Shown one piece after another: positions 35,276 to 62,761 of a stretch of 64,000 bases of DNA. This DNA is from Phycisphaerae bacterium (GTDB lineage Bacteria; Planctomycetota; Phycisphaerae; UBA1845; Fen-1342), in contig CAXXWX010000023.1 in assembly GCA_963675745.2 (NCBI GenBank), positions 197,761 to 261,760 of the forward strand, given 5' to 3'. A program made the position numbers and the translations under genes. The notes below the pieces were generated by a model. It did not search any database and was not told the DNA's origin. It was given only the letters and a program-made list of their open reading frames with translations. Each line of letters opens with the position of its first letter. Position 1 is the stretch's first letter.

Positions 35276-38375
<3,100 letters not shown>

Positions 38376-41239: not shown

Positions 41240-41573
41240 GGTCTTCTGGCTCCCTGCTAGCGGACGGTGTGTAGTGTAGCAGGTCACGCTGTGTGCATCT
41301 TCGATTGAGAGCGGCGAAGGCACGTCGCCGATGACCGTCCGGCTCGCCCCCGAAGCCGCGTGCCATGTCGATGGCTGTTCGCATCGACATGCGACTCGCG
41401 GGGGCGGGTTGGCTACGGGGTGTCCCATCCCATGCGCAGCAGTGGTGGCGGACGGAGTGTCGCCACGGCTCTCGGGAACGGATTTCCAGCGGTGTGGGGG
41501 CAAGATCGGATGCTCAGACCAGCGGCCGCGGCGCCAAGCCATTCAGCGTGAAACGCGCCTGGGCACCTGTCCG

Positions 41574-43647: not shown

Positions 43648-43699
43648 CGCCCCCAACGGGATTCGAACCCGTGTCGCCGGCTTGAAAAGCCGGTGTCCG
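43648..43699 (-). tRNA. 3' fragment of tRNA-Glu(TTC), probable att core
   Basis: Minus strand reads GGACA-CCGGC-TTTTCAA-GCCGG-CGAC-ACGGG-TTCGAAT-CCCGT-TGGGGGC-G. Anticodon arm, T arm and 3' acceptor strand are intact; the 5' acceptor strand and D arm are missing. Confidence 0.85.
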
Positions 43700-43956
43700 G
43701 GGTTCGTAGTGCGTGCAATGACAACAACTTAACGGCGGCACAGGGGCCGGTGACAGACAGGAGTACAAACGCGCCGGACGGCGCGCCCTGGATTGTAGTC
43801 GATTCCGGCCACTGTTCAGCGGATATTGTCGTGATATCCTAGACATAACGGGTAGCGGAGTCGCCCTCCGCGAAGGTTGCCCGGTGTCGCGACCGTCTCC
43901 ATCCTTCGGCCGCGGCCCGGGCGACGGCCCGACAACAACATTAGGATGGACTCGCC

Positions 43957-45183
43957 GTGGCCGCACCCCAACTCGAACGCCTGACGCCCGATGAAACCGA
44001 GGCGCTTCGGGTGTTGTACCGATTCTCGCACGACCCCTTTCGGACGGTGCATAACGCCGGGTTGCGTCCATACGTTGGGGACCTTCTCATAATGTCCGGG
44101 GTTGGACTGGGACCGCCACGTCCGGGGAACCGCCATCCGCGCATTGACCCAGTACCCTCTTACCTTGTGGACGCCGTCCTGCTCGCGCCACCATTCGTTG
44201 AGAGTCTGGGGATCGTGCGGTGCGATGGCGATGCACCCACCCCACCGCCTCGGACCACGTCAGATGATTGCCATCGCTGGGTTGAGACCTTGGCGGATTT
44301 GGGGGTTGTGAGTCGATGCGCGGCGCAGGCCACCTGGCCGACGGGCCGATTCTGGTTGGATGGCGACCTTGTGGCGAGTGTCCGAATCTTCCGCAAGCCG
44401 ATGGCAGTCGGAGGGGGGGGGACGACCGACTCCAGACCTGACACGGACGCGGACGGCCCCGCTATGTTCTCGTTTCTGCATCGCGTTGAGAACATTCGTG
44501 CTGTGAGGCAACAAGAGGCCGACTGCTTCAACATCTACGCCGGCACGCGGAATCAATGGCTCACCGTGCTTCACCGTGTGGCCCAGCACATCGCTGCCCC
44601 CCTGCTCACTAAGACCTTGGCGGCTCCGCTCGCGAACGACAACGACGATGGCAATTGGGTGACGCGCGAAATCAGAGGGACCGGGGCGTCAGACGAACTG
44701 CGCGCAGTTGTCGCCCGGTTTCCGGATGCCACAGAGGTGCTCGCAGAAACGGCGTCTGACTGTCTGCGACTCGTGCTGCAAGAGGATTCGTTTAACACAA
44801 CGAACCCGCTCACGAGCTACCGCTACGACCATCCTGAGGACTGGCCGCGTTGGTATCGAATCAGCGATGACGCCCTGCCGGCGGTGCGCGAACTGATCGG
44901 CGTCAGCAAAGGGCGCGATGAGACATCCGAGACAGTCTCGCGCATCGAGGCTTTCTTGCGTGCAGAACAGACCAGCGGCAGTGAATTGACCAAACCCGCG
45001 CAGGCCCTATTGAACGCGATGCAGAGTTGCCCCAAGCGCGTTCCCACTGAATGCGACCCATCCGGCGTACGGCGGCTGCGCACACGCTTGGTTTCTGCAA
45101 TACCTGAGGCGATGGACTGGTTTGACATCACCAAGGGCGGCAAGCTCGAATCACACATGGTTCGTTTCATCGAGAACGGCTGA
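43957..45183 (+). CDS. Hypothetical protein
   Basis: 408-aa ORF, first gene inside the att site; no motif recognised and no integrase RHRY residues. Confidence 0.55.
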   Translation: MAAPQLERLTPDETEALRVLYRFSHDPFRTVHNAGLRPYVGDLLIMSGVGLGPPRPGNRHPRIDPVPSYLVDAVLLAPPFVESLGIVRCDGDAPTPPPRTTSDDCHRWVETLADLGVVSRCAAQATWPTGRFWLDGDLVASVRIFRKPMAVGGGGTTDSRPDTDADGPAMFSFLHRVENIRAVRQQEADCFNIYAGTRNQWLTVLHRVAQHIAAPLLTKTLAAPLANDNDDGNWVTREIRGTGASDELRAVVARFPDATEVLAETASDCLRLVLQEDSFNTTNPLTSYRYDHPEDWPRWYRISDDALPAVRELIGVSKGRDETSETVSRIEAFLRAEQTSGSELTKPAQALLNAMQSCPKRVPTECDPSGVRRLRTRLVSAIPEAMDWFDITKGGKLESHMVRFIENG

Positions 45184-45195
45184 AGACGCCAAGAA

Positions 45196-45326
45196 TCACA
45201 CTTCCCAGGGGGCAAATCACACTAGCTTGGGCACGCTCCTCGTGGCGAAAACCGGGCGCAATTCTCGCCGCTACATGGGGTTACCGTTTTCTCACACTTT
45301 GATTTGACTCGCCTCACAATCACACT
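45196..45326 (+). repeat. Four direct TCACACT repeats (putative operators)
   Basis: TCACACT at 45196, 45217, 45292 and 45320; three are AATCACACT. Confidence 0.75.
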
Positions 45327-45366
45327 TTGCCTTCAAGACAGTCTAGCACTGCGTTAGGAGCAAACA

Positions 45367-45600
45367 ATGACTGTCTTCTCAATCACTGACATCGCCGCGC
45401 GGCTCACGCGGGTGACGGGTGCTTATGTCACACCGGGCCGCGTCAGCACGGCGCTGACTCGGCTGATTGCGTCCGGCGAAATCCCCGATCGGCGGGCCGG
45501 TGGCTGCCGGGTCGTGCTGGAAGGTGAATTGCCGATCATTGATGGCGAGTTCGGCGTTACTCAAGCAATGGTTACGGCTGCGGGGGGCGTGAATGTGTGA
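45367..45600 (+). CDS. Small putative HTH DNA-binding protein
   Basis: AGGAG RBS; FSITDIAARL..RVSTAL..GEIP excisionase-like pattern; overlaps the next gene. Confidence 0.6.
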   Translation: MTVFSITDIAARLTRVTGAYVTPGRVSTALTRLIASGEIPDRRAGGCRVVLEGELPIIDGEFGVTQAMVTAAGGVNV

Positions 45601-45817
45601 GCCGCTGCTCGTGACCGATAACGACGCGGCGAGGATGTGCGGCCGCGCGCCTCGAAGCTGGCAGCGTGATCGGGCGGCCGGCCGAATCGGCCCCACGCCG
45701 GTACGACTGGGCGGGCGCGTGCTTTGGGCCGTGTCTGATCTTGTGGAGTGGGTCGCGCGGCCGACGCGAGGCGGTGAACTTCTGACCCGAGCTGAGTGGG
45801 TCGCGCTGAAGCGGTAA
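45593..45817 (+). CDS. AlpA/excisionase-family HTH protein
   Basis: AARMCG..RSWQR..AAGRIGPTPVRLGGRVLWAVSDLVEW. Confidence 0.75.
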   Translation: MCEPLLVTDNDAARMCGRAPRSWQRDRAAGRIGPTPVRLGGRVLWAVSDLVEWVARPTRGGELLTRAEWVALKR

Positions 45818-45822
45818 CCATT

Positions 45823-48171
45823 ATGGTCACGGACAACACGTTCCGGGAAGTGACAGCCGCCAAGCGTTGCCCGATATGCGGGAAACCCGACTGGTGCCGA
45901 GTGAATGACACCGGGGCTGTTGAATGTCATCGCGAGTCTGATGCGGCTGTGGGCGCGTGGGTCAACGGATATGAACTGACGGCGCGCACCAAGGGGTGCC
46001 ACTACGGTATGTTCCGCCAGCCCCGGGGCGCAGCAAACTCGCCGCGTCACAATGGCAACGCCACGCCACCGATTCCAGCAACGCCGAACACATCGAGCAA
46101 GACGCGGAAGGCGTACCCCACCGAAGCTGCTGCATTGCGAGGCGCGGCAGCCAGTATCGCCAAGAAAAAGGGCGTGGCGTTCGCTGACGTCCAGCACGTA
46201 CACACGTGGACCTTTCGCAATCGTGACGGCTCTGAGTCGTTCCGCATCGCGCGATTCAACATCCTGGGCTGCAAAGACTACCGCCCGATACACCGCAATG
46301 GAGAAGGTTGGCTCGTCAGCGACCCGGAAGGCAAGTTGCCTCTCTATCGTCTGGATGAACTGGACCTCACGCGGCGCCTACATCTTTGTGAGGGAGAGAA
46401 ATGCGCCGACATCCTGCGCGGCCTCGGGCTGAACGCAACAACGTGGGCACACGGTGCGAGCGCTATCCGGAAAACGGACTGGTCGGTATTGAACGGCTGT
46501 CCCGAGGTCGTGTATCAGCACGACAACGACCCTGCCGGTGCGACCTCTATCGCGAAGCTAACGGAAGCGCTGAGCGGTATCGACACCCCGCCACAGTTGG
46601 CCGTAATCGACTTGAAGACCCTAGTGCCTGATCTACCGGCAAAGGGTGATATCGAACAGGCTGTGAAAGCGCTCGGCACGCAAACGTCAGAAGACATCGC
46701 GGCTGCCCTGGACGCGCTGGCCGATGGCGCTGGCTTTGTAGATGTGACTGCGAGTGAAGCCACATTCGACGCAAGGCCAGAGTCACAGCCGGGACCGATA
46801 CCAGAGTCGCGCAACGCGGCAACGGTTACAGCACCGGCCCCGGACTTCCCGTACACCGATCTCGGCAACGCCGAGCGCCTCGCGCACGAGCACGGCGCCG
46901 ACCTCCGATACACGGCAAGCCACAAATGGCTGGTGTATGATGAGGTCCGGTGGAAGCGCGATAAGACCGGTGAGGTACGGCGGCGCTTCACGGATACGGT
47001 CCGCGGCATGTACAAACAGGCTGCGGCGATTAACGACGCTGACCAGCGCAAGGCACTGGTCAGCCATGCACGTGGCTGTGAGTCCCTGCACCGTGTCAAG
47101 GCCGCCGTCGAACTGTGCCAGAGTCACGCCGATGTTGCCACTACCATCGAGGCGTTCGATGCGGACCCGTGGTTACTCAATACGTTGACCGGCGTCATCG
47201 ACCTGAAGACCGGCTACTTACGGCCGCATCGGCGCGAAGACCTGATGATGAAGCTGGCACCGGTTGAGTACACACCCGATGCCAAGTGCGCACGGTGGGA
47301 TAGGTTCCTTCGTGAGATATTCGATTGTGACGTGACCTTGATCGACTATGCGCAGCGCGCCGTAGGCTACGCTGTGACCGGCGTCGTCCGCGAGAACATA
47401 GCGCATTTCCTGTATGGGGCTGGCGCGAATGGGAAGTCAACGTTTTTAGACGTGCTGTCATTTGCACTCGGCGACTACGCACGAACAGCACCACCGAAAC
47501 TACTGATACAGCGCACCAACGACGCGCACCCAACAGAGTTGGCCACACTACACGGCACCCGTTTTGTCACGTCCGTCGAGACCGGCGAACGTCGCGTACT
47601 CGACGAGGAACGACTGAAGCAGTTGACCGGCAAGGACCGTATCAGTTGCCGATACATGCGCGCCGATTTCTTCGAGTTCGAGCCAACGCACACGCTGTTC
47701 CTGTGTACGAACCACAAGCCAATAATCCAGGGTACCGACCACGCCATCTGGCGGCGCATCGCGCTGTGGCCGTTTACCGTGCAGATTCCCGATAGAGACC
47801 AAGACCCCGACCTGGCGGATAAGTTGAAGCGCGAGGCGCCTGGCATACTCGCATGGGTGGTGCGAGGCTGTCTGGAATGGCGGCGGCGCGGCGAGAAACT
47901 CGAGGCACCCGAGTGTGTATTAGACGCGACAGCCAAATATCGAACAGACTCTGACCTTGTCGGCGACTGGCTGGACACCTGTTGTCTAACTGGTGACGAA
48001 TGGGTCACAGAACGCAAAACCTTGTATCGGTCGTATTCAGCGTGGGCCACCGAGTCCGGCATCACGCCTATGTCGAATATCGCCTTTGGTCGCATGTTGG
48101 GTGAACGCGGGTATCGACAGGAACGACGGGGCGGCACGACGGTTCACCACGGATTGTGGGTGCGACCGTGA
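45823..48171 (+). CDS. Phage/plasmid P4-family primase-helicase
   Basis: Zn finger CPICGKPDWC, TOPRIM CEGEK/DND, D5_N YTDLGNAERL, SF3 Walker A GAGANGKS, TNHKP, IWRRI. Confidence 0.92.
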   Translation: MVTDNTFREVTAAKRCPICGKPDWCRVNDTGAVECHRESDAAVGAWVNGYELTARTKGCHYGMFRQPRGAANSPRHNGNATPPIPATPNTSSKTRKAYPTEAAALRGAAASIAKKKGVAFADVQHVHTWTFRNRDGSESFRIARFNILGCKDYRPIHRNGEGWLVSDPEGKLPLYRLDELDLTRRLHLCEGEKCADILRGLGLNATTWAHGASAIRKTDWSVLNGCPEVVYQHDNDPAGATSIAKLTEALSGIDTPPQLAVIDLKTLVPDLPAKGDIEQAVKALGTQTSEDIAAALDALADGAGFVDVTASEATFDARPESQPGPIPESRNAATVTAPAPDFPYTDLGNAERLAHEHGADLRYTASHKWLVYDEVRWKRDKTGEVRRRFTDTVRGMYKQAAAINDADQRKALVSHARGCESLHRVKAAVELCQSHADVATTIEAFDADPWLLNTLTGVIDLKTGYLRPHRREDLMMKLAPVEYTPDAKCARWDRFLREIFDCDVTLIDYAQRAVGYAVTGVVRENIAHFLYGAGANGKSTFLDVLSFALGDYARTAPPKLLIQRTNDAHPTELATLHGTRFVTSVETGERRVLDEERLKQLTGKDRISCRYMRADFFEFEPTHTLFLCTNHKPIIQGTDHAIWRRIALWPFTVQIPDRDQDPDLADKLKREAPGILAWVVRGCLEWRRRGEKLEAPECVLDATAKYRTDSDLVGDWLDTCCLTGDEWVTERKTLYRSYSAWATESGITPMSNIAFGRMLGERGYRQERRGGTTVHHGLWVRP

Positions 48172-48178
48172 CTCACCG

Positions 48179-48280
48179 TCATGCAGCTTATGCAGGAATG
48201 CAAGATCTCCGTATAAGCCTACATGAGAAGAATCTAGTACGGTTAACCTGGAATTGCCAAAGGCTGCATAACTTGCATGA
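48179..48280. other. Putative replication origin with inverted ATGCA iterons
   Basis: TCATGCAGCTTATGCAG (48179-95) and CTGCATAACTTGCATGA (48264-80) form a 15/17 inverted repeat around an AT-richer core, directly after the primase stop. Confidence 0.65.
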
Positions 48281-48598
48281 CAATCGCCATTCCGGGGCCA
48301 GAAACGCCGATTCTCGGAGATTCTTCGAGCATGCATGATATGCAACCGTGCGCGGGGAGAAGATCAGGCTGCCGCCAATGACGCGGGTGACGGCCGATCT
48401 GCCTGGCCGGGTCTGCGAGTGCAATGCTGATCTCTCGTGGCTCGCCAACCGTGAGTGCGGCTGAGCATTTGCCGCTGATCGCGAAGATTTCATCTGAGAA
48501 CTAATCACTCACCGTCGCCCGTCGACGATCAGCTCGACAAGAATCGATATCGGCGGTGCGACTGTCAGCTCTCGCCCGCAACCGCTGGTGGCCGTGAC

Positions 48599-51583
48599 CT
48601 ACGGCGACTCGATGCGGAAGATGAACAATCCGTTATCGCCGGCAGCGAGGTAAAGGTGGCCATCCGAAATCGTGAAGTTGCTTGTACGTCCCACCGAGTC
48701 CAGACCGCCGACTCGGATCGGGCGGCTCGGATCGCTCAGGTCCAACACCGTCATGGTCGTGCGCAACCCGTTCGGGTCCAGCAAGAAGGCGCGTGATCCC
48801 GAGATTACGACTCTAGAGATGCCGGAATCGTCATCATCGTACTCTGCCGTGCGCATGGGCGTAGCGGGATCTGACACGTCGACGATCTCCAAGCCACCTG
48901 ACCAGATTGCCACGCACAGATGATGCCCCATCAGGTCGAGCCCCATCGCATCCGTATCGGTGTCGTAGCTCGACACCTGGCGCATACTACTGTAATCGGA
49001 TACGTCGATGATCCTGACAGTCTTCCTATCACTGACGTAAGCATAGTCACCGAGTGTTGCCCGTACGGTTCCGTTGACCGACGCCAAGGTGCCGACCTGC
49101 CGCAGGTCATCGGAAATGTCTGGCTCGATGACCATGAGGCCTTCGACGTCGCTGCTCGTAAATACTGTGTCGCCGGCAAGGCTCAGTCCCTCCAACCCAC
49201 CCGCGGCTCTAAACTCTGTCACCGGGATAACAGTTGTCGGCTGATAGATGCGAAACAGACCCAGCCGCCGACCATATCTGACATAGACTCGTGAGTTGCT
49301 GAGGGCAATCTGTTTCGCATATGCGATGCCCGCGTCGATCGTGATGTTTGCCTTGAATTCGGGGCTGGCAGGGTTGCGTACGTCAATCACCTGCAATGCC
49401 TGATCGTCGTAGTCGCCGTCGGCAACGTAGGCATAGCCGTCCTTGATCGCCACGTCGATTGCGTAGCTGCCCGTCACGACGTGTCCAACTTGCTCCAGTC
49501 GGACACGTGGCGGGAGGACGCGCACATGAACACTATCAGATTGCACATGTCCCACGGCGTCGCGCACCTCCAGCGTATAGATCGTCGATGTTGACGGCTG
49601 TACCGGGGGCGATGTCGTGGTGGATGACCAGCCCGATGAATCGGACCACTCGTATCGATAGGGGGGTGTCCCACCGGTGACATCTGGCGTTAATATCGTC
49701 GACTCACCGCAGTGGATTGTGCCCGGCGCCGCAGCTGCCTCGACGGCAAGTTGACCATCTTCAATGCGCAGCACATGCAGGCTCGACCCGGTCAGATAGA
49801 TAGTCCGGTCGACCAGCGCAACGTCTTGGAATTGCGACGGCGGGTCAATTTGGTATACGCCTACGCCGCGCGGATTCGCTGGATCCGAGATATCTATCAC
49901 TTCGGCGCGCGCGTATACGCTGTAGGGATCACTGATCACTGAGCCCAAGTTGCCGGGCCAGTCGATCAGTGTGATCACGGCGTAATCTCCGTCCACCGCG
50001 ACCCCGTCAATGATACCACTAGGACGCCATGCAGACACAAACATCGGCGCCGTCGGATCGGAAACGTCATAGATCTCCAGGCCACGAGCCCACCCATTGG
50101 CGGCGTAGAGATACCGTCCAGAGACGGCGACGTCATGGCACTCGATCTGGTCACCACGTGATTCAATGGTCGCGACTTCCCTTGCCGTGATCGGATTGGA
50201 GATGTCGAGGACACGGATACCCCACACCGCAGCCGCCACATATGCATACGCGCCCTGTGTCACGATTCGCTGCGCCAACTGATTGTCTAATTCGATCGTG
50301 TAAACGTGTATCGGTGAGCATGGATCGCGCAGTTCGATCACATCAACGCCATGGGTGTGCGTGGCATACGCATACGCGCCAGATACCGCTAGATCGTTAC
50401 ACCGACCATCAAGCGTCAGGGTAGTGACGTGCAGGGGGTAGAGCGGACGTCGGATGTCCAGGACCTCAAGGGTGTTGTCATTGATGACGTAGGCATAATA
50501 CCCGCTGATGCAGACATTGCTGAAGGGTCCATAAATCGCTGGATAGTAATGGTGAAGCAGGGCTGGGGATTCCGGACGTGAGACATCGATGGTCTTGATG
50601 CCCATTCCTTGTGTGATGTACGCGTAGCCATTCAAGCCGGGCCAGTCCGGCACGGTGATTCGAGTGGAGCCGTATTCCTCTAGCATCGCCAAGCAGCTGA
50701 CGGGCATCGTGGTTGCGGCGATATCCGCGACCACGTCGACTGCGATGGTAGCGTTTGATGCCATGTCATTGCCGTCGCGTACAGTTAGCTTGATCTCATA
50801 GCGTCCGGCGCTGTGCAGCGTGGCGGATAGCGTGGCCGAGTCGCGGCCCTCATAGAAGGCGACTGGATCGGCCATCTCAGCCTGTGCCCATTTCGGGTCC
50901 CAATCATAAGAGTATGGTAATGTTCCCCCCGTCACAGAAGCCGCGATGGTGACAACGCTCCCGGAACGCACACTGCTGGCGGACGCCGTGAGGGCGACCG
51001 CCAGTTGTTCCGGGCTGCCGTTGGCCAGGACCATCACAGCGTAAGTACCGACGTGGTCAACTAACGCGCTGACGTGGTGGTTCACGGTGTCGACCACGCT
51101 GTTGGCCACTTTGTTCCATGCGCCATCCAGTAGTTCATACATGCTCAACTCGGACTCGGTGGCCTGCTCCGGCAAAGCCGCCGGATCGTAGTGAATCTCA
51201 AGCCGCACTGGTTCGGTGAGCGCCATGTCCGATGGCCCGAGTTCGCATACCGTCCCCGTGACAAGACGAGGATCAGCAGCGTGTTGGACGGTAGGATCTA
51301 GGACGAATGTTGTCGTTGAAGCCGTAGCGTTGGCCGGAATCTCCAGACGTACCATACCGTCGGCTGTGGTGACGACCCGCTCGTTAACTGCGGGCACATC
51401 CGGCGTCGACGGTGTCGGCGTTACCGGTGCCTGAGGCTCGGCTTCATTGGTGTCCGAATTCTCCACCGGGGGAATTGGGGGTTGGGTTGGTAGTGAACAA
51501 GACATTGCAAGTATGGTGGCAACCATGCACCAGGAAACAGGAGCACCGCGCCTGCCATTGAAGTGCCTGGTGATGACTGACAT
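48599..51583 (-). CDS. LVIVD-repeat beta-propeller lipoprotein with ZU5-like and PKD-like domains
   Basis: Lipobox AMSC; many YAYVA..GLxIxDVSDP repeats; two GGTxPYxYxW Ig-like modules. Confidence 0.85.
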   Translation of the reverse strand: MSVITRHFNGRRGAPVSWCMVATILAMSCSLPTQPPIPPVENSDTNEAEPQAPVTPTPSTPDVPAVNERVVTTADGMVRLEIPANATASTTTFVLDPTVQHAADPRLVTGTVCELGPSDMALTEPVRLEIHYDPAALPEQATESELSMYELLDGAWNKVANSVVDTVNHHVSALVDHVGTYAVMVLANGSPEQLAVALTASASSVRSGSVVTIAASVTGGTLPYSYDWDPKWAQAEMADPVAFYEGRDSATLSATLHSAGRYEIKLTVRDGNDMASNATIAVDVVADIAATTMPVSCLAMLEEYGSTRITVPDWPGLNGYAYITQGMGIKTIDVSRPESPALLHHYYPAIYGPFSNVCISGYYAYVINDNTLEVLDIRRPLYPLHVTTLTLDGRCNDLAVSGAYAYATHTHGVDVIELRDPCSPIHVYTIELDNQLAQRIVTQGAYAYVAAAVWGIRVLDISNPITAREVATIESRGDQIECHDVAVSGRYLYAANGWARGLEIYDVSDPTAPMFVSAWRPSGIIDGVAVDGDYAVITLIDWPGNLGSVISDPYSVYARAEVIDISDPANPRGVGVYQIDPPSQFQDVALVDRTIYLTGSSLHVLRIEDGQLAVEAAAAPGTIHCGESTILTPDVTGGTPPYRYEWSDSSGWSSTTTSPPVQPSTSTIYTLEVRDAVGHVQSDSVHVRVLPPRVRLEQVGHVVTGSYAIDVAIKDGYAYVADGDYDDQALQVIDVRNPASPEFKANITIDAGIAYAKQIALSNSRVYVRYGRRLGLFRIYQPTTVIPVTEFRAAGGLEGLSLAGDTVFTSSDVEGLMVIEPDISDDLRQVGTLASVNGTVRATLGDYAYVSDRKTVRIIDVSDYSSMRQVSSYDTDTDAMGLDLMGHHLCVAIWSGGLEIVDVSDPATPMRTAEYDDDDSGISRVVISGSRAFLLDPNGLRTTMTVLDLSDPSRPIRVGGLDSVGRTSNFTISDGHLYLAAGDNGLFIFRIESP

Positions 51584-52014
51584 GGGCGCCTCCTTCTCCG
51601 AGATTATCCAGATAGCGGCCGCTGACCGGCCACACGGAGCAGCCTGAACGCCATCGTAACCGTTTCCAGCAGCCGCATGCAAGACAGACGCGTCCGGTTC
51701 GCATGCTGGCGACGGACAACGACTGTAACTCGCGCGTACCTAAATCGTTATTCACCCACGTGCGACACCGTCAAAGTGATGAGGGCACGCATCGCTGATC
51801 GTGATCACCGTCGAACATTAAGAAACGCAGTGCTGACGATCGCACCATCCGTAAGTGCTGCAAATACAAGGCTATACAAAGCGCCGCGCTGGCGCGAATA
51901 ACGATTTGGCCGGTTGCGAACTGCCGGCCGGTGCCCAGCGCAGACGGCAACCATGGTCTCGATCGCTTAAGCCGGTTCATTAGAGCACTCGGAGCTTCCA
52001 TCCAATACCCGCCA

Positions 52015-52110
52015 GCGGTGGATTGAACCGCAGGCGCTTCATCCGTGCAAGGATGGCCGCGAACAAGTTGCGGGACGCCGCCACCTCGGCCGTCTGGATG
52101 AACACGGACA
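52015..52110 (-). pseudogene. Probable remnant of an IS1380 transposase C-terminus
   Basis: Translates as IQTAEVAASRNLFAAILARMKRLR, resembling the FQxAEVAVPRxLFxxILxRIxxLR end of IS1380 transposases (recalled, not searched). Confidence 0.45.
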
Positions 52111-52735
52111 TAGGTAGCTGCGGTGCCGCTGAAACACCCTTACCACGACAGATAATTCGCGCCTCGATGCGTTTGGCAAGGAAGCGCGCGGCACGTTGGG
52201 ACGCCGAGTGCTGCAGCAACCCACCCAACTCATGCTGCGTATTCTTGCCGTACCGAGAGTCACGGAAATGCCGCCTGCCGTCGCCCTCACTGTCAACTGA
52301 CTATACGCCGTGGTAAGTGCCATCTGGGACATCCTGAATCAACGGTGCAATCCCTTCCAACTCTCAGATCCGAGTGGTCTCACCGTGCGCGTGTTTCCCG
52401 GATCATTCGGGAATCACGTTGCGATTTGCGCTTCCAATTCGCTTCCAATCCTCGTGCCTCAACGCCCATAGGCGAGTCCGATCGGCGCAATAGCAGCCCC
52501 GACAGCTCCTGTCGGGTGTGGCGTGGTGGGGTGCGCGCGGACACTGAGCACTCGGGCGCCCGATTCACGCGCCGCGCGCCACTCCCAGGCCCGTCGTGCA
52601 CTCGTCACTAGCACCCATTGTGCCATACGGCGCCCGTCTCTCATTAGTGCGCCGCGCGCCAATAGTAGTATTGGCCATCTGCCCGATGCGCGCAATAGTA
52701 GTGTGGGGGCGCGCAACAGATAGGAAGGTGAGACA

Positions 52736-52948
52736 ATGGATGATGAGAGCTTGCGATTGTTGAGCATGATGCGCGAGGCGCGGGCGCGCGAGTGGGCGAC
52801 CGCCCTACTAGCGGCGCGACAGGTACCCACTCCTGTGGGCGCAACACTGGACCGCATGCCGGTAGTAGTAGTGCGCATAATCCAAGGAGCAATATTGCTG
52901 GTCAGTGTGGTCAATGCGGTACTGTGCTGGGTGTCTCTCAGCGGATAG
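52736..52948 (+). CDS. Small hypothetical protein with C-terminal TM helix
   Basis: GGAAGG RBS; hydrophobic C-terminus; first gene of a co-directional cassette. Confidence 0.5.
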   Translation: MDDESLRLLSMMREARAREWATALLAARQVPTPVGATLDRMPVVVVRIIQGAILLVSVVNAVLCWVSLSG

Positions 52949-52959
52949 GAGGTATAGCA

Positions 52960-53301
52960 ATGGGCAAGCGCGTTGACGATCGCACCAACGAACAGCGCAG
53001 GACACACACTGTGCTGTATGGCGGGCGCGACACATTTATGAGCGGATGGGGTGAGTGTCGGGATGGCGTGTCCTATGCGTTCTGGGCATGCACGCCCGCG
53101 GATGCGGAGTGCGTGCGCGATTGGGTTCAGTCACGATCGGACATATCACGATTGCGACAAGTACCGCGCACGATCGGCCGCAATGATCATGTGCATATTT
53201 ACTGTGTTGGGCCGGGTCATCCGGCGCTTGGGTGCCGGAAGTGTGGGCACGCGATCGACTCGGCCTCGCACCAGAACGCACGCAAAGGGAAGACGCCATG
53301 A
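52960..53301 (+). CDS. Phage-type hypothetical protein
   Basis: AGGAGGT RBS; DTFMSGWG motif; ATGA overlap with the next gene. Confidence 0.7.
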   Translation: MGKRVDDRTNEQRRTHTVLYGGRDTFMSGWGECRDGVSYAFWACTPADAECVRDWVQSRSDISRLRQVPRTIGRNDHVHIYCVGPGHPALGCRKCGHAIDSASHQNARKGKTP

Positions 53302-54185
53302 CCACGACAGACACCATGACGCAAACAGAGCGCGTGCTTGCTGAGATGCTCACCGAGAATACTGGGCGCCACATGTGCGATAGTGGCGGGACACCACGAT
53401 ATGACGCCGATGGAAGGTACGCCGGATCAGAGCATGGGTATGGGCGCGCCTATGAGCGCAATGCTGGGCGCGAGTTTGCGGCAGAACCAGCCACAACGCT
53501 TTCATTTCGGTATTCGGATATCGAGGTTACGCACAACGTCTATCACTGGTTGCTTGAGCGCGTCGAGTACTGCGAGCGCCTCGATAACCTGTTTCAGCGA
53601 TACAGCGCACGGCAGGAAAACACCTACTACCTCGAAGATATGGAAGTGTTCCCCCAATGGCTGGCGTATCGCACAGGCGCCACGATAGACGGGCTGTACG
53701 GGGACGGTGCGCCGATGACGGTTAACACGTACAACGGTGCGGACCTCTTGTCGCAGGTGTTGCAATACGTGTTCTTTCGGATCGACGGGGAAGCACACAT
53801 TGTCCTGCAAATCCACAATGGCGCCGATGTCCGTGGCGGATATACCCGCCCGCGCGTGTTCTGTCTGTCGCAATGCTGCGACGAAGCCGACATCCTCGAC
53901 AACGCGCGCGCGTCGATCTACTGCAAGCGCAAGCAAACCGACGCACCCGGTCAGCAATTCGTAGACGGATGCGAACCCGATAGGCATCCGCACTACTGGT
54001 CAACCGATGACGCGTATCACTGGTACGCTGAGGGCGCTTGCGGGCTTGGCGCCGGCGCCCAGCTTGAGACATACGAGCGCGTCGAATCCGACAATCCAGA
54101 CGATGGGGATGGCGTACTTCGCGTCGATTCCGATGGCGTAGGCTACTGCCCGATATGCGGTGGGCGCCTCGGCGCGGGAGCATAG
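53298..54185 (+). CDS. Phage-type hypothetical protein with C-terminal CxxC
   Basis: ENTG..DSGG..YGRAYERN, NTYNG, LSQ, IHNGADVRGGYT; CPICG at the end. Confidence 0.75.
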   Translation: MTTTDTMTQTERVLAEMLTENTGRHMCDSGGTPRYDADGRYAGSEHGYGRAYERNAGREFAAEPATTLSFRYSDIEVTHNVYHWLLERVEYCERLDNLFQRYSARQENTYYLEDMEVFPQWLAYRTGATIDGLYGDGAPMTVNTYNGADLLSQVLQYVFFRIDGEAHIVLQIHNGADVRGGYTRPRVFCLSQCCDEADILDNARASIYCKRKQTDAPGQQFVDGCEPDRHPHYWSTDDAYHWYAEGACGLGAGAQLETYERVESDNPDDGDGVLRVDSDGVGYCPICGGRLGAGA

Positions 54186-54189
54186 GGCA

Positions 54190-54621
54190 ATGCTGACAAC
54201 CTCCGAATTGAGAATGTATCAGAGTGCGCGCCGCGCTGGATATCGTCCGTCCGAAGCGCTCGATATTGCGAAGGTTAACGAGGCTTGGGAACGGGCCGAA
54301 TATGCGGATCAGGTTCGTATTGTGTGCGAGCTCGATACGGACCCTGATCTGTCCTGGTTGGATGATGGGGCGTGGTCAACGCACGAGGTAACGCGACAGC
54401 GCGACTTTATCGCGTGTCATGGAATCTGGGTCGTCCGCTCGCAATGGCGTGAAACCGCCGACAGCGAATGGGAAGATGCAGACTGCATCAGCGGATGCAT
54501 CTACGAGCGCCCCGATTGCCCGCTAGAGAATTGCTACGTTACCGATCTTCGCCGCGCCGCGCTGGACGCGCTGGCCAATGGGCATAGCAGATGCGTCACG
54601 TGCGGACACATCCTCGAGTAG
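54190..54621 (+). CDS. Phage-type hypothetical protein with C-terminal CxxC
   Basis: Starts 4 bp after the previous stop; CVTCG at the end. Confidence 0.65.
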   Translation: MLTTSELRMYQSARRAGYRPSEALDIAKVNEAWERAEYADQVRIVCELDTDPDLSWLDDGAWSTHEVTRQRDFIACHGIWVVRSQWRETADSEWEDADCISGCIYERPDCPLENCYVTDLRRAALDALANGHSRCVTCGHILE

Positions 54622-54636
54622 CCAAAGGGGTTTGCG

Positions 54637-54954
54637 ATGAGAATGAAAACACCGGCATTCAGAATTCGCCGCTATCGTGCCTGGAGTTATGACGTATGGG
54701 GAAACGCGCGGGATGGATTCGACGTTAACGATCGCTACGACCATGGACATGTAGACATCCGCTGCAAACGCCAGGTGTACAACGCTGGCACGGCGCACGA
54801 GTTTGCGGCGTATGATCCGACCGATCGGCAATTGTCACGCGCTGTCGGCGCGCGCGGCGTCGAATGGGATGGCGAGTCTGATTACACACTGTACGCCACA
54901 CAGCGTCGAAATGGACGCCCGATTTGCGAGTTGGAGTTTATCGAGTACCGATAG
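54637..54954 (+). CDS. Phage-type hypothetical protein
   Basis: YDVWGNARDGFDVND motif; last gene before a terminator. Confidence 0.7.
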   Translation: MRMKTPAFRIRRYRAWSYDVWGNARDGFDVNDRYDHGHVDIRCKRQVYNAGTAHEFAAYDPTDRQLSRAVGARGVEWDGESDYTLYATQRRNGRPICELEFIEYR

Positions 54955-54983
54955 GCACGACCGACAGAGTACGCCACACAAGG

Positions 54984-55020
54984 CGCCGCGCAGCCTAACA
55001 CGCTGCGCGGCGTTCTCTTC
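54984..55020 (+). terminator. Intrinsic terminator-like hairpin
   Basis: CGCCGCGCAGC-ctaacac-GCTGCGCGGCG followed by TTCTCTTC. Confidence 0.65.
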
Positions 55021-55437
55021 GCGCCTAACGAGCCCTACCCCATATCCCATACGATCATGCCCACCAGTGCGTTGGCGCTCGCTGGCGCCAGCGTAGGGCA
55101 TGCTGGCGCCTACGCTGATCGTGTGGCCACACTGCGTCAATCGTAACCCAATTCATGCAGGCGCTTTGCTTCCAAGATTGCGGGCATCGGTGCCCAGGTG
55201 GCGCCGCGCACGCCGGTGCCACCTAGGCACAACCTGCCACCATGCACGTTATAAAAACAACGTGGCAAAAAACAATTTTGCGCGGCGTGTGCAACAGCAT
55301 GACGGCGCCGCGCGGCGGACTATCGCCCACAAGTCAAGGCGAGACCGCGGCGCGTTGCGACCACTTGCCGCACCTACTACAGGCGAGGTAGTTAGGCCGT
55401 TGTTCATATGATAATTAGCCGACCAGTTAGGTCCAAT

Positions 55438-55480
55438 GGGTCCTTCCAAGGGGCCGCGCGAGGTCTCCGGCAGACCGGCA
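55438..55480 (+). other. Putative cos packaging site (cosQ-like GGGTCCT plus dyad)
   Basis: GGGTCCTTCC at 55438, then the dyad GGTCT-CCGGC-AGACC; about 200 bp upstream of a TerS-like gene. Confidence 0.5.
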
Positions 55481-55643
55481 TCGAAGGTCTGACACCCCCT
55501 CAAGGCCAGAAAATGGGCCAGAATCACCGGTTGCGCGCGCCGCAGGTGGGCGCGGGCGCGGACTCTGTAGATTGCGACTTGCGAGGGATTTGGCAGCAAC
55601 ATTTGGCGCCGGACGTTCGAGATTGTGCTAAAGTAAGGGTGTT

Positions 55644-56147
55644 ATGTCTGAACGCAAGAACAGGAACGGGAAGCCGACCGGGCGGGTGCTCACGACGTTG
55701 AAGCAACTCGCGGCGTACCTGGAGCTGAGCTACTCGCACACGGCGCACCTCGCGAAGCAGTACAACATGCCGGGCCAGAGGGGGCATTACGACCTGAATG
55801 AAATCGACGCGTGGCGGGAGCGGCACAAGCTGCGGCGGAAGCGCAGCGTGGTCGCTAGTCCGGAGGATGATCTGGTCGAGGCAAGGCGCAAACTGGCGGT
55901 CGCGAAGCGTGAAGAGGCGAGAGCGATCCGTGAACAGCACGCGGCGGAACGGGAACAGGGGAAGCTGATTGACCGGGTGGAGGCTCAGAAACGGGAAGAG
56001 CAGATCATTGATTGGGCGGTGTCTGTGATGGAGTTGGCCGAGGCTGAACTGCCGGAGCAGTTGACAGGGAAGACTACGGGGGCGATCCGTGATTGCATGC
56101 GGGAGTGGTTCAGTGAGCAGCGGCGTAAGTCACTGATGAAGCAATAG
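55644..56147 (+). CDS. Nu1-like terminase small subunit
   Basis: N-terminal HTH (TLKQLAAYLELS), GHYDLNEIDAW, coiled coil ending EQGKLIDRVEA, C-terminal LPEQL helix; 167 aa. Confidence 0.68.
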   Translation: MSERKNRNGKPTGRVLTTLKQLAAYLELSYSHTAHLAKQYNMPGQRGHYDLNEIDAWRERHKLRRKRSVVASPEDDLVEARRKLAVAKREEARAIREQHAAEREQGKLIDRVEAQKREEQIIDWAVSVMELAEAELPEQLTGKTTGAIRDCMREWFSEQRRKSLMKQ

Positions 56148-56525
56148 GCGTGGCTTTGTGTATCTAACACATCTTTCTGAGGCCTGCGATTGATAACTCG
56201 GAAATGGGGGGCCTAACAGCTATTGGCACGTGGTCATACTGCGAAGTCCGGTGCTCGTACTGACCAGCTTCGCGCTCTGGCGTCGCCGCTAGCCGACGCA
56301 GCGCATCGCTACGGTCAGGACCTTGTCGCGGGCCACTGCTGCCAGACTTCGAGCGCCGATTCGTAACCGGTGCTCTCACTTGCGAAACCTCCGCTGGCGC
56401 TCTACTGGCGGTTTTAACCGCTCGGCGTCGTCAAACTGACCGCAAGATTCGAGATCTGCCCATTGTCCCAGCGAAGTCTCAAAGTCTCGCGGTTTGGGGA
56501 ATGCCCCCCTCCCTCAAGTGGTCGC

Positions 56526-56819
56526 TCACCGTTCATCCGGCAGCTCGTATAGCCCGTGGCCCGCACGGCACAGTTTCCCCCGCCGCACCAACTCGTCCCA
56601 CACCGGCTGCGGATACCGCGTCGGCGGCCGGATCGCGACGATGCCGGACTTGCCGCCGCTGCTCATCGCACCGTGACCCAGCCTCGATTCCTCATCGAGC
56701 CGCGTGAGCTTGAGCCGTTTCTTGAACGCCTTCAACGCGTTCTTGAGCTGCGCGTGGTCGAAGCCGCCGGGCGATGCAGCCCCCGGTTCACCCGAAGACT
56801 GCGGCGTGTTATTCGTCAT
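56526..56819 (-). CDS. Small basic hypothetical protein
   Basis: ALKAFKKRLKLTRLDEESRLG..PPTRYP..VWDELV..GKL..GLYEL; protein-like sequence with strong GC3 bias. Confidence 0.7.
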   Translation of the reverse strand: MTNNTPQSSGEPGAASPGGFDHAQLKNALKAFKKRLKLTRLDEESRLGHGAMSSGGKSGIVAIRPPTRYPQPVWDELVRRGKLCRAGHGLYELPDER

Positions 56820-56826
56820 TCCGCAC

Positions 56827-58909
56827 TGCCCACACGCGGTGTTGGTGGCCACGCTGACGAGCCAGATTTCGGAGTTTCTCGACGAAGGCGGGGAAAAAGT
56901 CTACCAGTCGCTTGAGAAGGTCTTTGGGCGCATCGAAAAAGTGAAACTCCCCGTGGAAGGGATGGAGATCTACGAGGTCATACGGCGGCGGCTGTTCGAA
57001 AACCTGGGCGATCCGGCGGACCATCAAAAGACGGTCGAGGCGTACTTCGAGAAGTATCGCAGCCTGGGAGATGACGTTTCGCAGGCAGTCAAAGAGCCGT
57101 CGTACAAGCAGACGATGCTGGCAGCGTATCCGTTTCATCCTGAACTGCTGACGGTGCTGTACGAGCGATGGGGTTCCATCACCGAGTTTCAGCGGACACG
57201 CGGAGTGTTGCGGCTGATGGCCTACGTCGTCAGCGATCTTTACAACCGCAAGGACAACGAGTCGCTGATTCAGTCGTGTGACATAAACCTCGGGCTGGCC
57301 GAAATTCGCGGCGAGTTGGTGAAGTATGCGGGCAACGCGTTCCATGGCGTGATCGACAGCGACATTGCGGGGCCGGATGCCAAGTCGCCGCAAATCGACC
57401 GCGAACTCGGCAGCGAGTACGCCAAGGAATCGGTCTCGGAGAAGCTGGCGAGGGCCACGTTCATGTACTCCTTCGGTGGTGGCCAGCAGAAGGGCGCGAC
57501 AGTGCCGCAACTGCGACTGGCCGTCTTGAATCCCGAGATGAACCCGCCCTTCATCACCGATGCGCTTGACCGCATGTCGAAGCGGCTGTGGTTCATGTAC
57601 GCCGACAGCGGGCTGTATCGCTTCGAGCAGAAGCAGAATCTCAACCGCACCATTCTCGACCGCGAAGAGATGGTACGGTCGGACCACGAGAAGGTGCTGG
57701 AGTTCGCCCGCAGCAAGCTCAACGACATGATCGGCGAAGCGCATTTCCGCGTCTTCCGCTATCCGCATGAGAGCCGGGACGTGGCGGACGACCCGAAGCT
57801 GAGCCTGGTCGTGCTCGATCTGCACCAGGTCGCTGCCGAGGGACGGCTGCCTGCGGCCACCGAGAAATTCGTCGGCGAAATCGTAAAGCAGCATGGTCAG
57901 AGCTTCCGCAAACATGCCAACACGCTGATATTCATCGCGCCGGACGAAGAGCGCGCGGCGGAAGTCGTCGAAGCCGCAACGCGTCTGATTGCGCTGCGAG
58001 CGATTGACTCGGACAAGGCCACGAAGAAGCGATTGACCGACGAGCAGCTTGCAGACCTTGCGGGCCGGTTGAAGGATGCCGAGGCGAGGTTGCCCGCTGT
58101 GCTCTCGCAGGTTTATCGGCACGTAATTGTCCCGACCGAGAAGAAGGCGCTGCGGTCATTCGACATGGGCGTTCAGACCTACGATGGCCGGACGACCGTC
58201 AGCGACCGTGTGTATGGCACGCTCAAGGAGAACGACCAGCTTCTGGAGCGGCTCGATCCGGCGTTGCTGATCGGCAAGCGCTGGAGCCTCTGGCCGGATG
58301 AAGAGGCGGTGGTCAACGGCAAGACGCTCGCGGGCTACTTCACGCAGTTGACGCACCTGCCGATGCTGGCCGGAGTGGGCGTCCTGCGCGAGACTGTGGC
58401 GCGGGGCGTCGAGCGCGGCGTATTTGCCTATGCTCTGGGCGACGGCGAGGCCAAGCAGTTCGACACTATCCGGTTCAAGGTGTCGCTGGCGGCGGACGAC
58501 TGCGAGTTGATTGACTCATCGTGGCTGCTTCGTCCTGCTCTGGCGCAGGAACTCATGCCGAAGCCGGAGACGCCTGCTGTTGGCGGCGTAACCACGTCAC
58601 ACGCGACCACCACCACTGGCGGTGACATTGGTGGCGACGAACTGCCACCCCCCGACCGACAAACCCAAGATCATTGAAGGCGAGCGCAGGCTTGACCTGG
58701 TTCGAATCCGCATGGCGGTCCCGTGGGAGCACTGGATGGACATTTACAACGAAGTCATCGAGCCGCTGGCCAACGAAGGCGCAGAAATCCTGGTCAACGT
58801 CAACATCGTGGCCAAAGCGGAAGGGGCCATCCGCGAGAACACGGTCGAATTCGGCATCAAGGAGAGCCTGTCGCAGCGCGGGATCGAGGCTGAAGTGGAC
58901 ACAAGGTGA
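56827..58909 (+). pseudogene. N-terminally truncated DUF499 (AAA+ ATPase-associated) gene, apparent frameshift ~58650
   Basis: EIYEVIRRRLF, AYPFHPEL and FQRTRGVLRL are typical of DUF499. No start codon or Walker A region: the homologous frame begins abruptly at CPHAVLVATL. Confidence 0.75.
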
Positions 58910-59291
58910 CTCCGCAGCCCACGGTGATTCGCGTCAAGCAGACGCGCTCCGGGCTTCAGAGCCAGGTGGCCGGCCTGCATTACGCCTGAGGCTGTCGCCA
59001 TCGGCCTTGATACTGGGAACGACCAATCAGCATTGAAGGGGGCGATGGAGATGGCATTTGCTGCCCGCTTTGGTTTATGATGGTGCTTTGAGGAGTGATG
59101 GGGAGGACTGGGGACCGACAACCAGCCACTTCCCCCTGACAAACACGCGAAGGGTCTAGCCATGGTGCGAGATAGATCGGGTATGCGCGGCTTCAACTGA
59201 GCGTGGCGGCGAGCTGCGGGCCTGCTCGTATGGCGACGGCGGAAAACGGTATAGCGGAGCGTGAGTCATCGGGCGTCCTGTCGGCTCAGGG

Positions 59292-59489
59292 TGTCAGCGG
59301 GCGGGCAAAACGTACCACTGATGGGCGGGTTTGGCCCGGCCGCTCGTCGTCGCGGTGCGGATCAACGCTTTTCGCCCCCAGCACCCTCAGAGCACGGGTG
59401 GCAGGGCACTGGGGGCGAAAAGCTGTTAGGGGGATGTTGGATGGTTCCAACCTGCCCGATAGTGGCCGGTTTGAACCTGCCCGGTGACA
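59292..59489. mobile_element. ~198-bp non-autonomous IS21-type element (MITE)
   Basis: TGTCA...TGACA ends, each with two tandem GGGC(G/A)GG..CCACT-like repeats; flanks CTCAGGG / CTCAAGG (6/7 match); internal perfect 15-bp inverted repeat. Confidence 0.7.
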
Positions 59490-59518
59490 CTCAAGGCATT
59501 CCGGCGGAGGAAAGGACA

Positions 59519-61458: not shown

Positions 61459-61505
61459 CGCGATCGCCAGCGAGACTTGCGGCTCACGCGACAAGGGGGA
61501 GAACG

Positions 61506-62721: not shown

Positions 62722-62761
62722 TCAGCAGGGGGTGCACGTCGCGAGTCGAGGAGGATGGGAC

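Follow-up and report, generated by a model that had tools for sequence, protein, structure and literature searches.

The 64,000-nt stretch of Phycisphaerae DNA analysed here (the window) carries an element which we interpret, with a probability of about 0.68, as a PICI-like phage satellite of Phycisphaerae, or a recently damaged copy of one, integrated at tRNA-Glu(TTC). The element extends over 12.5 kb, from the single att copy found to the stop codon of a small terminase (TerS) gene, and the cos satellite lineage that it represents probably provides a TerS of its own in place of an Rpp. Related elements of other planctomycetes point to a group of virus parasites that has not been described before and that, judging from its genes, would replicate its own DNA and be packaged by a borrowed virus motor. 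The content of the element, complete relatives, motif conservation, a second TerS without TerL and an allele swap were counted in favour of the satellite; the missing integrase and second att, the lack of a helper in the host assembly (G000), a mixed TerS tree, loci that lack the motif or have TerS in settings suggestive of prophage stumps, and an unshared cassette were counted against it.

Left boundary and left arm of the element

The gene order between positions 43648 and 56147, from the tRNA remnant through TerS, is mostly that given by an earlier, sequence-only reading. Its placement in a planctomycete also holds, as the flanking PPDK gene finds its best matches in MAGs of Phycisphaerae/Planctomycetales (71–76%); the host assembly is 91% complete and 6% contaminated. 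The left arm comprises the following features:

43648–43698, minus strand: 3′ remnant of tRNA-Glu(TTC), distal att copy and left island boundary (Rfam, 31.1 bits; tRNA ends of relatives)
43957–45183, plus strand: 408-aa ORF without assigned function or family match, at the att-to-AlpA position
45149–45327, plus strand: four AATCACACWW direct repeats 5′ of the regulatory genes (0.22 expected)
45367–45600, plus strand: 77-aa ORF, probably a small DNA-binding protein; no family match
45593–45817, plus strand: AlpA/excisionase-like HTH_17 protein of 74 aa (PF12728, E 7e-6; phrog_66, E 1.5e-4)
45823–48171, plus strand: P4/D5-type primase-helicase (D5_N, E 4e-33; TIGR01613, 303.7 bits; phrog_6088, E 4e-128)
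48178–48347, no strand: candidate origin with an 18-bp inverted repeat (arms at 48178–48195 and 48264–48281) and TGCA-rich motifs

The tRNA att proposed earlier is an att remnant and not a whole tRNA: only the 3′ 51 nt of tRNA-Glu(TTC) are present, with up to 100% identity to the 3′ ends of the corresponding tRNAs of relatives, and ARAGORN called no tRNA in the window. The contig of the element in sequencing run X1 begins within this remnant. The adjacent 408-aa ORF has no match in Pfam, PHROGs, NCBIfam or Atlas, and its N-terminus weakly resembles a 326-aa ORF at the same position in another island of the host genome (C24; pairwise E 8e-4). None of 100 shuffles reached the count of the AATCACACWW repeats, which bears out the repeats of the sequence-only reading as putative operators. 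The 77-aa ORF had been called an HTH protein, which finds no family match in Pfam, PHROGs or NCBIfam; its one homolog lies upstream of a serine recombinase in genome G134 (E 3.6e-15). The next call, AlpA, agrees with phrog_66 and with an HTH_17 score of 26.6 bits, just below the cut-off of 27, and homologs occupy the same position in loci L104, L025, L139 and L147. PF12728 counts as AlpA in the PICMI model (PMC10803314). The primase-helicase was likewise correctly named, D5_N, DUF5906 and TIGR01613 all exceeding their cut-offs. Finally, the site read as an iteron origin retains its inverted repeat and TGCA-rich motifs (8 ATGCA/TGCAT in 180 nt, against a window mean of 1.14 per kb; fold z −1.64) and contains no iteron-type direct repeats.

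Cargo, phage-type cassette and absence of virion genes

Three features separate the candidate origin from the cos region:

48599–51583, minus strand: cargo, a secreted-type LVIVD beta-propeller/PKD protein of about 994 aa (domain matches)
52736–54954, plus strand: phage-type cassette of five genes (70, 113, 295, 143 and 105 aa; PHROG and phage-record matches)
54981–55330, no strand: hairpin-rich spacer (z −2.27 and −2.81)

The cargo gene was identified, and its product has paralogs elsewhere in the host genome. The phage character of the cassette, also noted earlier, is carried by the 295-aa protein (53298–54185; phrog_11344, E 2.5e-34), the only member with clear homologs: it matches 32 phage records, where its homologs lie in early or terminal regions, and the 113-, 143- and 105-aa ORFs match none. 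No member of this family turned up in 300 other genomes of the class or in 300 genomes of the phylum. Given that the predicted structure (pLDDT 93) has a best VIA Z of 3.7, that there is no PDB sequence match and that the phage matches are all uncharacterised, neither a new fold nor a function is demonstrated for this protein. The first spacer hairpin may terminate cassette transcription; of the terminator proposed here, the hairpin stands (z −2.27), and the terminator scan did not call it (9 sites against 10.3 expected). For promoters as well as terminators, the scans gave results at chance level.

The absence of TerL, portal, capsid, tail and lysis genes was borne out by PHROG searches of 17 + 77 ORFs from 43.6 to 64 kb, which returned none of these and no integrase; general Pfam/NCBIfam scans of the main ORFs gave no relaxase. 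Genome-wide, G000 contains no match to gpA TerL, TerL_ATPase, Terminase_6N or portal_2. The satellite reading therefore survives the search for TerL and structural genes, found neither in the element nor, with these four models, in the genome. Among the PICI core components of SatelliteFinder, the AlpA/MerR/Stl regulator (via HTH_17 and phrog_66), the primase-replicase and the small terminase homolog are present; tail, holin and TerL genes are absent up to the contig end, and so is the capsid-morphogenesis gene (no capsid PHROG). The element lacks the capsid, portal, TerL and head-tail genes of its own that characterise cf-PICIs. It also lacks the TerL, portal and head genes past TerS of an intact lambda-type prophage, in contrast to locus L143 of genome G607. 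The gpA ATPase is missing from all five satellite-bearing genomes and from G000, against its presence in 5/5 genomes with TerS-TerL loci. The helper with gpA-like TerL that had been anticipated was hence not found in the G000 assembly (91% complete), and prophages with TerS and gpA TerL do occur in the same family and order.

The predicted cos site and the small terminase

Two features make up the putative packaging module:

55438–55444, plus strand: cosQ-like GGGTCCT, conserved 5′ of TerS among TerL-less loci
55644–56147, plus strand: full-length Nu1-type small terminase with winged HTH and long helices (PHROG, Atlas, profile comparison)

GGGTCCT, which we take to be identical to lambda cosQ, occurs only once in the window, and the cos cut is predicted about 20 nt downstream. 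The cosQ-like site of the sequence-only reading is confirmed by its retention before TerS in 8 of 14 TerL-less loci (0.21 expected). Among TerL-linked loci the same motif precedes TerS in 2 of 16 (0.15 expected) and a broader cosQ motif in 6 of 16 (1.08 expected); the broad motif is absent from 5 of the 14 TerL-less loci.

The Nu1-like nature of TerS is also confirmed (phrog_57, E 5.5e-7; Atlas DUF1441/Phage_Nu1, 0.94–0.95), and its profile matches lambda TerS with an E of 5e-7. The match to RppC is weaker (E 4.7e-4) and confined to the HTH. Homology to TerL-linked TerS covers columns 4–149 of the 162 in the profile, and the C-terminal half alone scores 21.2 bits, a value reached by 0 of 200 shuffles. 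This full-length likeness does not indicate the Rpp-like role proposed earlier, and at the sequence level favours a true TerS. Searches with the single protein revealed no close relatives in genome contigs or phage records, and a word-based search returned only the protein itself. Foldseek gave nothing at E ≤ 0.001 for the TerS model, only weak rows of MerR/Xis-type HTHs. A viral scan reported two related stretches, from which no locus was obtained. A 19-nt cos pattern matched six metagenome stretches, none with TerS, and was dismissed as chance. Locus scans based on the distant TerS alignment were precluded by its variability.

Relatives of the element

Three complete, att-bounded, TerL-less relatives of 8.3–11.8 kb were found in genomes of the same class, so that elements with this layout do exist outside the window. 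All three hold cosQ, a Nu1-type TerS, an HTH gene and an integrase converging on a tRNA:

G079: 11.2 kb, 68-bp att, gene order as in the window
G513: 11.8 kb, 57-bp att
G462: 8.3 kb, 55-bp att

TerS, cargo, integrase and tRNA lie on one strand in 6 of the 14 TerL-less loci. An integrase-first order is seen in L121, L140 and L150 and not in the window, where the 408-aa ORF adjoins att. Some relatives carry head-protease genes. In the TerS tree, TerL-less and TerL-linked proteins are mixed (10 changes against 11.6 when shuffled, with weak support); as the tree does not support a single satellite clade, the new family suggested by the sequence-only reading is not established. In a further 17 loci, the setting of TerS is ParB/methylase or unresolved, and these may be prophage stumps.

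The element itself could be such a stump, a cos-spanning piece of a lambda-type prophage (early cassette, cos and TerS) left by a deletion from TerL onward or captured by a primase island, and performing no hijacking. The intermixed tree agrees with this, as do a cassette gene lying near the right genome end in cultured phages, the junction and truncated gene that come after TerS, and loci such as L117, L118 and L132, which end at TerS past a ParB/methylase gene. We nevertheless consider it unlikely, because the three relatives combine both att copies, integrase and TerS without TerL, the left arm holds only the ORF, HTH, AlpA and primase genes, and TerS and motif are intact. Moreover, TerS without TerL recurs in G000 (87% identity over 68 aa), in a different island, one that terminates at a tRNA-Val remnant.

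The right end and the assembly

To the right of TerS the window continues with genes of another kind:

56529–56819, minus strand: 97-aa host-type conserved protein, outside the satellite core (in 11 of 26 genomes)
56825–58677, plus strand: 5′-truncated, anti-phage-associated DUF499 gene (domain match)

DNA likeness of the 97-aa gene stops at 56819, its upstream DNA being cut by the next junction; the join at 56820–56824 is a deletion or a misjoin, and a run-X1 contig goes on for 2269 letters left of 56825, unlike the window. Neither an integrase nor a second att occurs from 43.6 kb to the contig end at 64000, an absence that the sequence-only reading had overlooked, and an intact tRNA-Glu(TTC) is absent from the assembly. 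The copy is therefore broken, misjoined or unfinished, and its mobility only putative. None of the integrases at G000 contig ends could be linked to the tRNA-Glu, and the cut integrase on contig C18 is part of a tRNA-Pro element. Mapping of the empty site failed, as the relatives checked show no conserved gene order around tRNA-Glu. The element contig has about half the depth of its flank in X1 (4.0 against 8.0), and one X2 contig departs from the window at 43698, by 20 letters; these two observations hint only weakly at an element-free allele and were not counted as evidence.

The 6% contamination, the several alleles in the runs and the thin X1 cover at 56008–56674 could also mean that the observed order arose during assembly, as a mosaic of islands from several strains. 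This is very improbable, since single X1 contigs cover 43669–52675 (9 differences) and 52748–55465 (17 differences), so that doubt is confined to the joins near 52.7 kb and to the right of TerS.

Joint exchange of the putative cosB side and the TerS HTH

One further segment was defined by the population data, runs X1 and X2 being one sample of one study:

55466–55741, plus strand: allele-replaced segment, putative cosB and the first 33 TerS codons (238 other letters in the population allele)

In run X1, the swap starts 21 nt past GGGTCCT and stops within the TerS HTH, so that in the allele of this run the DNA-binding part of TerS is exchanged jointly with the sequence on the right side of the predicted cos cut. 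A TerS variant on an 11.7-kb contig, P0026, matches the window TerS from residue 33/34 on and has no close relatives in JGI metagenomes. The swap-allele contig extends 2067 letters unlike the window, a stretch which, compared by length, has the size of an HTH-integrase end.

This exchange bears on whether TerS is a mere passenger of a tycheposon-like cargo island of more than 20 kb, with its integrase past the contig end and spread by general transduction or vesicles. Such an island would fit the lack of a second att before 64000, the other tRNA islands of G000 (20–50 kb, rich in dockerin/PMP-type cargo) and the C24 island, which has the same ORF-AlpA-primase-integrase backbone and no Nu1-type TerS. 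Both the joint exchange and the fixed place of the cosQ-like motif before TerS across families speak against it, and we regard it as quite improbable.

Proposed packaging and relation to known satellites

For the PICI-like satellite that we prefer, a helper phage would turn on the AlpA/Xis-like gene via the repeat operators, and the integrase, which in relatives follows TerS and reads into the tRNA, would excise the element. The primase-helicase would replicate it from the candidate site directly downstream of its gene. Its own Nu1-type TerS would then bind cosB and recruit the helper gpA TerL, which would cut about 20 nt after GGGTCCT, and helper heads would be filled with element DNA. The five-gene cassette left of cos would be the last-packed and first-injected end, presumably following lambda polarity, and might act as an early anti-defence block. 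The HTH-integrase-tRNA end is lost or unassembled here, so that this copy would either depend on an integrase supplied in trans or only seed cos-initiated packaging in place.

The element resembles Gram-negative cos PICIs such as EcCICFT073 (PMC6092414, PMC6739421) in its AlpA-type regulator and primase-helicase, its size (theirs is about 10–15 kb), its lack of virion and lysis genes, a putative cos of its own with a lambda-like cosQ and a presumed lambda-type helper motor. It differs in its host phylum, in the lack of a capsid-morphogenesis gene in this copy and in having a full-length Nu1-type TerS in place of Rpp, which works solely as a complex with phage TerS (PMC6092414, PMC6739421); in addition, 6 of the 14 relatives have their integrase after TerS and converging on the tRNA, whereas theirs leads the element. 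In pac SaPIs and TerS-encoding PICIs (SatelliteFinder type B; bioRxiv 2022.09.14.508007), an own TerS redirects the helper TerL, as proposed for the present element. The complete relative G079 has 4 of the 5 type B core components and this copy 3, the capsid-morphogenesis gene being optional (bioRxiv 2022.09.14.508007). Unlike in pac SaPIs, the TerS here belongs to the lambda cos type and is accompanied by a cosQ-like site instead of being headful, and no Stl/Ppi was seen. PICI-like tycheposons and VEIMEs (10.1101/2020.12.28.424599; PMC9618062) share a tRNA-targeted tyrosine integrase, a partial-tRNA att, a primase/helicase, a TerS or capsid gene, a TerS near that of co-occurring phages and islands growing by repeated insertion. 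They were described from marine cyanobacteria, Alphaproteobacteria and Verrucomicrobia, and the passages considered here mention no cos site; "Planctomyc" is absent from both main texts. PICMI (PMC10803314) shares integrase, AlpA (PF05930 or PF12728) and primase (DUF5906), and differs in inserting at fis, in a paper without the word terminase, while the elements described here lie at tRNAs and encode TerS and cos.

Phage satellites have so far come mostly from Proteobacteria, Firmicutes, Actinobacteria and marine plankton, and our literature searches turned up none for Planctomycetota. The present elements provide att sites, predicted cos sites and candidate gpA-type helpers in a phylum whose phages are little studied. 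Tentatively, and with less than even odds, Phycisphaerae may harbour widespread, undescribed cos satellites that repeatedly capture a helper cos-plus-Nu1 module instead of evolving Rpp, change packaging specificity by joint cosB-side/TerS-HTH swaps and, in this element, position an anti-defence cassette of phage origin at the first-injected end. The swapped allele offers a natural experiment for asking how the match between TerS and its binding site is maintained. A route of gene flow in these hosts is suggested by the cargo, which consists of secreted beta-propeller proteins and defence genes, and the pairing of a complete TerS of the element's own with a corresponding cos suggests a third route to redirect a lambda-type packaging motor.

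Gene content and boundaries of the element

The window is the terminal 64 kb of contig C23 in a 5.2-Mb genome of 28 contigs (completeness 91%, contamination 6%), and the PPDK gene flanking the element has its best matches in Phycisphaerae/Planctomycetales MAGs. From left to right, the element contains:

43648-43698: tRNA-Glu(TTC) remnant
Next: 408-aa ORF, assigned to no family in Pfam, PHROGs, NCBIfam or Atlas
Next: AATCACACWW repeats, four copies (0.22 expected)
Next: 77-aa ORF
Next: HTH_17/phrog_66 protein
Next: P4-type primase-helicase
Next, opposite strand: LVIVD cargo gene
Next: cassette of five small phage-type ORFs
55438: GGGTCCT, the sequence of lambda cosQ
55644-56147, plus strand: Nu1-type small terminase (TerS)

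The operator-like repeats, AlpA-like gene, primase-helicase, cargo and cosQ-like site proposed in the sequence-only reading are present. The tRNA att was right as to the tRNA, of which just the 3′ 51 nt exist rather than a whole gene. Where an iteron origin was proposed, TGCA-rich motifs accompany an inverted repeat of 18 bp, and at the supposed terminator a hairpin is present, yet the terminator scan makes no call. No intact tRNA-Glu(TTC) was found among the 47 tRNAs of the assembly, from which Pro(TGG) and Val(GAC) are also absent; genome-wide, integration hot spots are recognisable from at least 10 incomplete tRNA or tmRNA copies. Further left, the PPDK frame (36852-38375) stops early near 36.9 kb, probably through a frameshift, and adjoins a 934-aa ORF (38738-41542), secreted peptidase-like by eye. 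The minus strand at 35286-35630 encodes Lys/Ala-rich repeats, presumably of the type seen in histone H1-like protein.

From 43.6 kb to the end of the contig, PHROG scans of 17 main ORFs plus 77 more detected, as had been claimed, no TerL (large terminase), portal, major capsid or lysis gene, and no integrase either; in the structural class, the sole rows came from Ig-type similarity between the cargo protein and Hoc and tail families. Across the genome, gpA ATPase, TerL_ATPase, Terminase_6N and portal_2 gave 0 matches, and none of the 12 tyrosine-integrase matches lies within the element. To the right of TerS follow a host-type 97-aa gene (11/26 genomes) and a DUF499 gene without its start. 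A contig of sequencing run X1 matches the window from 56825 rightward, its left side being 2269 letters unlike the window; the join at 56820-56824 between these two genes is a deletion or misjoin. The assembled copy therefore carries a single att and lacks an integrase. An assembly mosaic is highly improbable; another single X1 contig covers 43669-52675 with 9 differences.

The truncated, anti-phage-associated DUF499 gene and a 95-aa ORF after it occupy 56825-58909, and X1 holds an allele with another upstream part. At 59261-64000, FGE-sulfatase-like and PMP-repeat genes are split into short frames; single letters missing in X1 at 59400, 60854, 61030 and 61495 point to assembly indels.

The small terminase and its alleles

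The claimed Nu1-like TerS held up, matching phrog_57 and Atlas clusters bearing DUF1441/Phage_Nu1; its predicted structure is an HTH with long helices (pLDDT 90). A 20-row profile made from its distant homologs matched lambda TerS (E 5e-7) and, within the HTH alone, RppC, a TerS-like Rpp protein of Gram-negative PICIs (E 4.7e-4). A profile of 22 TerL-linked TerS spans residues 4-154, and the C-terminal half by itself scores 21.2 bits against it, exceeding 200/200 shuffles, although these scores are biased upward because the loci were collected with a profile that includes the query. Lambda TerS is described as binding TerL by its C-terminal part, and Rpp as functioning only together with phage TerS (PMC6739421). 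In light of this C-terminal match, we read the protein as a probably complete TerS.

The element is present in two runs, both of one sample. In X1, a second contig covers 52748-55465, after which 238 different letters replace 276 before it rejoins at 55742-56062. The replacement begins 21 nt downstream of GGGTCCT, about where cosN comes after cosQ in lambda. A protein from an 11.7-kb contig (P0026) is 92% identical to the window TerS from residue 33/34 onward and differs in its 63 N-terminal residues, scored as HTH; the length of its start agrees with the 238 letters. The swapped segment carries the putative cosB and TerS recognition region together. Beyond 56062 the X1 contig extends for 2067 letters unlike the window which, known by length alone, would fit an HTH-integrase-tRNA end (1.6-2.5 kb in loci L113 and L141).

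Relatives and helper-type prophages

The TerS profile detected loci in 39/401 class genomes (including one unpublished genome, G283, of which the other results are independent) and 31/279 order genomes, both counts including the source genome. Sorting 49 loci by hand from gene maps and PHROG scans gave the window itself, 14 TerL-less loci close to an integrase, tRNA or primase, 17 loci linked to TerL, and a remainder of 17 that were either associated with ParB/methylase or of undecided setting. The homologous TerL-less layout sought in Planctomycetota was found in three complete elements with both att copies: G079 (tRNA-Ser, att 68 bp, 11.2 kb), G513 (tRNA-Gly, 57 bp, 11.8 kb) and G462 (tRNA-Arg, 55 bp, 8.3 kb). 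G079 matches the window in order (remnant, unknown ORF, small ORF, AlpA-like gene, helicase, GGGTCCT, TerS) and then runs through cargo and an HTH gene to an integrase that overlaps the end of the tRNA. This TerS-integrase-tRNA arrangement recurs in 6/14 TerL-less loci; the integrase leads in L121, L140 and L150.

GGGTCCT lies upstream of TerS in 8/14 TerL-less loci (0.21 expected), 2/16 TerL-linked (0.15 expected; one locus with too short upstream DNA left out) and 0/17 others. A broader motif occurs in 9/14, 6/16 and 11/17, respectively (expected 0.93, 1.08 and 1.19). Helper-type loci (TerS, gpA TerL and portal) also exist, the G607 example having the same GGGTCCTTCC. Candidate helper prophages with gpA-like TerL were located in relatives' genomes, with none in the source genome; gpA ATPase occurs in 5/5 genomes with helper-type loci versus 0/5 satellite-bearing genomes.

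In the TerS tree (38 rows; 7/35 branches well supported), TerL-less and TerL-linked proteins are mixed (10 changes versus a shuffled mean of 11.6), which counts against one family. The mixing would agree with TerS having been captured from phages more than once, as has been reported for VEIMEs (PMC9618062), and would also agree with decay. A prophage stump, for which such decay would speak, is unlikely beside the complete TerL-less elements.

Four TerL-less loci (L140, L147, L141, L142) have a head-protease-like gene beside TerS (phrog_94, phrog_53 or likeness to an ORF of contig C18) and no capsid match; they are possible capsid-remodelling variants. A second recurrent layout (recombinase, primase, ParB/methylase, Nu1-type TerS) comprises L109, L116-L118, L129-L132, L148 and L152-L154, with GGTTCCT or GGTACT and the adjoining gpA TerL often missing; G134 has four copies.

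The cassette and other islands

The 295-aa cassette protein has 815 homologs and matches in 32 phage records. Among the matches listed, Gordonia and Mycobacterium phages carry it 3-4 kb from the right end, and in phage Saintus it adjoins an annotated anti-restriction gene; from position only, an anti-defence role may be suggested. It was found in 0/300 other class genomes, 0/300 phylum genomes and three planctomycete MAG loci, where the rest of the cassette is missing. The cassette is cargo of the window element, not a family trait. A cargo island with TerS as passenger is distinctly unlikely next to the recurrence of the motif upstream of TerS.

Three further islands were seen in the source genome. 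At the cut end of contig C17 (101914-122096) lies a second Nu1-type TerS, 87% identical to the window TerS over 68 aa and again with no TerL. Some 20 kb of cargo (ECF sigma factors, kinases, PMP/dockerin-type genes, nuclease) separates it from a tRNA-Val remnant. A separate element on C18 (1-9000, L124) holds a tRNA-Pro remnant, HTH, primase-helicase, phrog_83 TerS, a protease-like ORF and a major capsid gene (phrog_10, E 5e-35), and its integrase is truncated where the contig starts; with TerL and portal not seen there, it is a candidate capsid-encoding satellite. The tRNA-Gly island on C24 (20751-36441) has an ORF, AlpA-like gene, primase, helicase, genes that look like type I restriction and an integrase sharing 47-50% identity with the G513 and G462 integrases, and no Nu1-type TerS.

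A probable PICI-like satellite

In SatelliteFinder, a PICI is recognised by five components (integrase, AlpA/MerR/Stl, primase, capsid morphogenesis, TerS), 4/5 being type B (bioRxiv 2022.09.14.508007); the window copy has 3/5 and G079 4/5, so the element is regarded as a PICI in its working and is not filed as one. Titles and abstract starts yielded no phage satellite reported for Planctomycetota or Phycisphaerae, and "Planctomyc" is absent from the main texts on SatelliteFinder (whose supplement may list planctomycete elements), VEIME and tycheposons (10.1101/2020.12.28.424599). In the tycheposon model, older elements are pushed from the tRNA and decay, a course of events that would explain the missing integrase.

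A PICI-like satellite is the most likely reading (probability about 0.7). Accounts used for comparison were PMC6092414 for Gram-negative PICIs, PMC6739421 for Rpp and PMC10803314 for PICMI. What was observed directly is the gene content, the conserved motif, the complete relatives and the prophages of helper type. Induction would begin with AlpA/Xis switched on by the helper; excision would proceed through an integrase at the tRNA end and replication would be driven by the primase. For cutting and packaging, the element's own TerS and cos would recruit the helper's gpA TerL.
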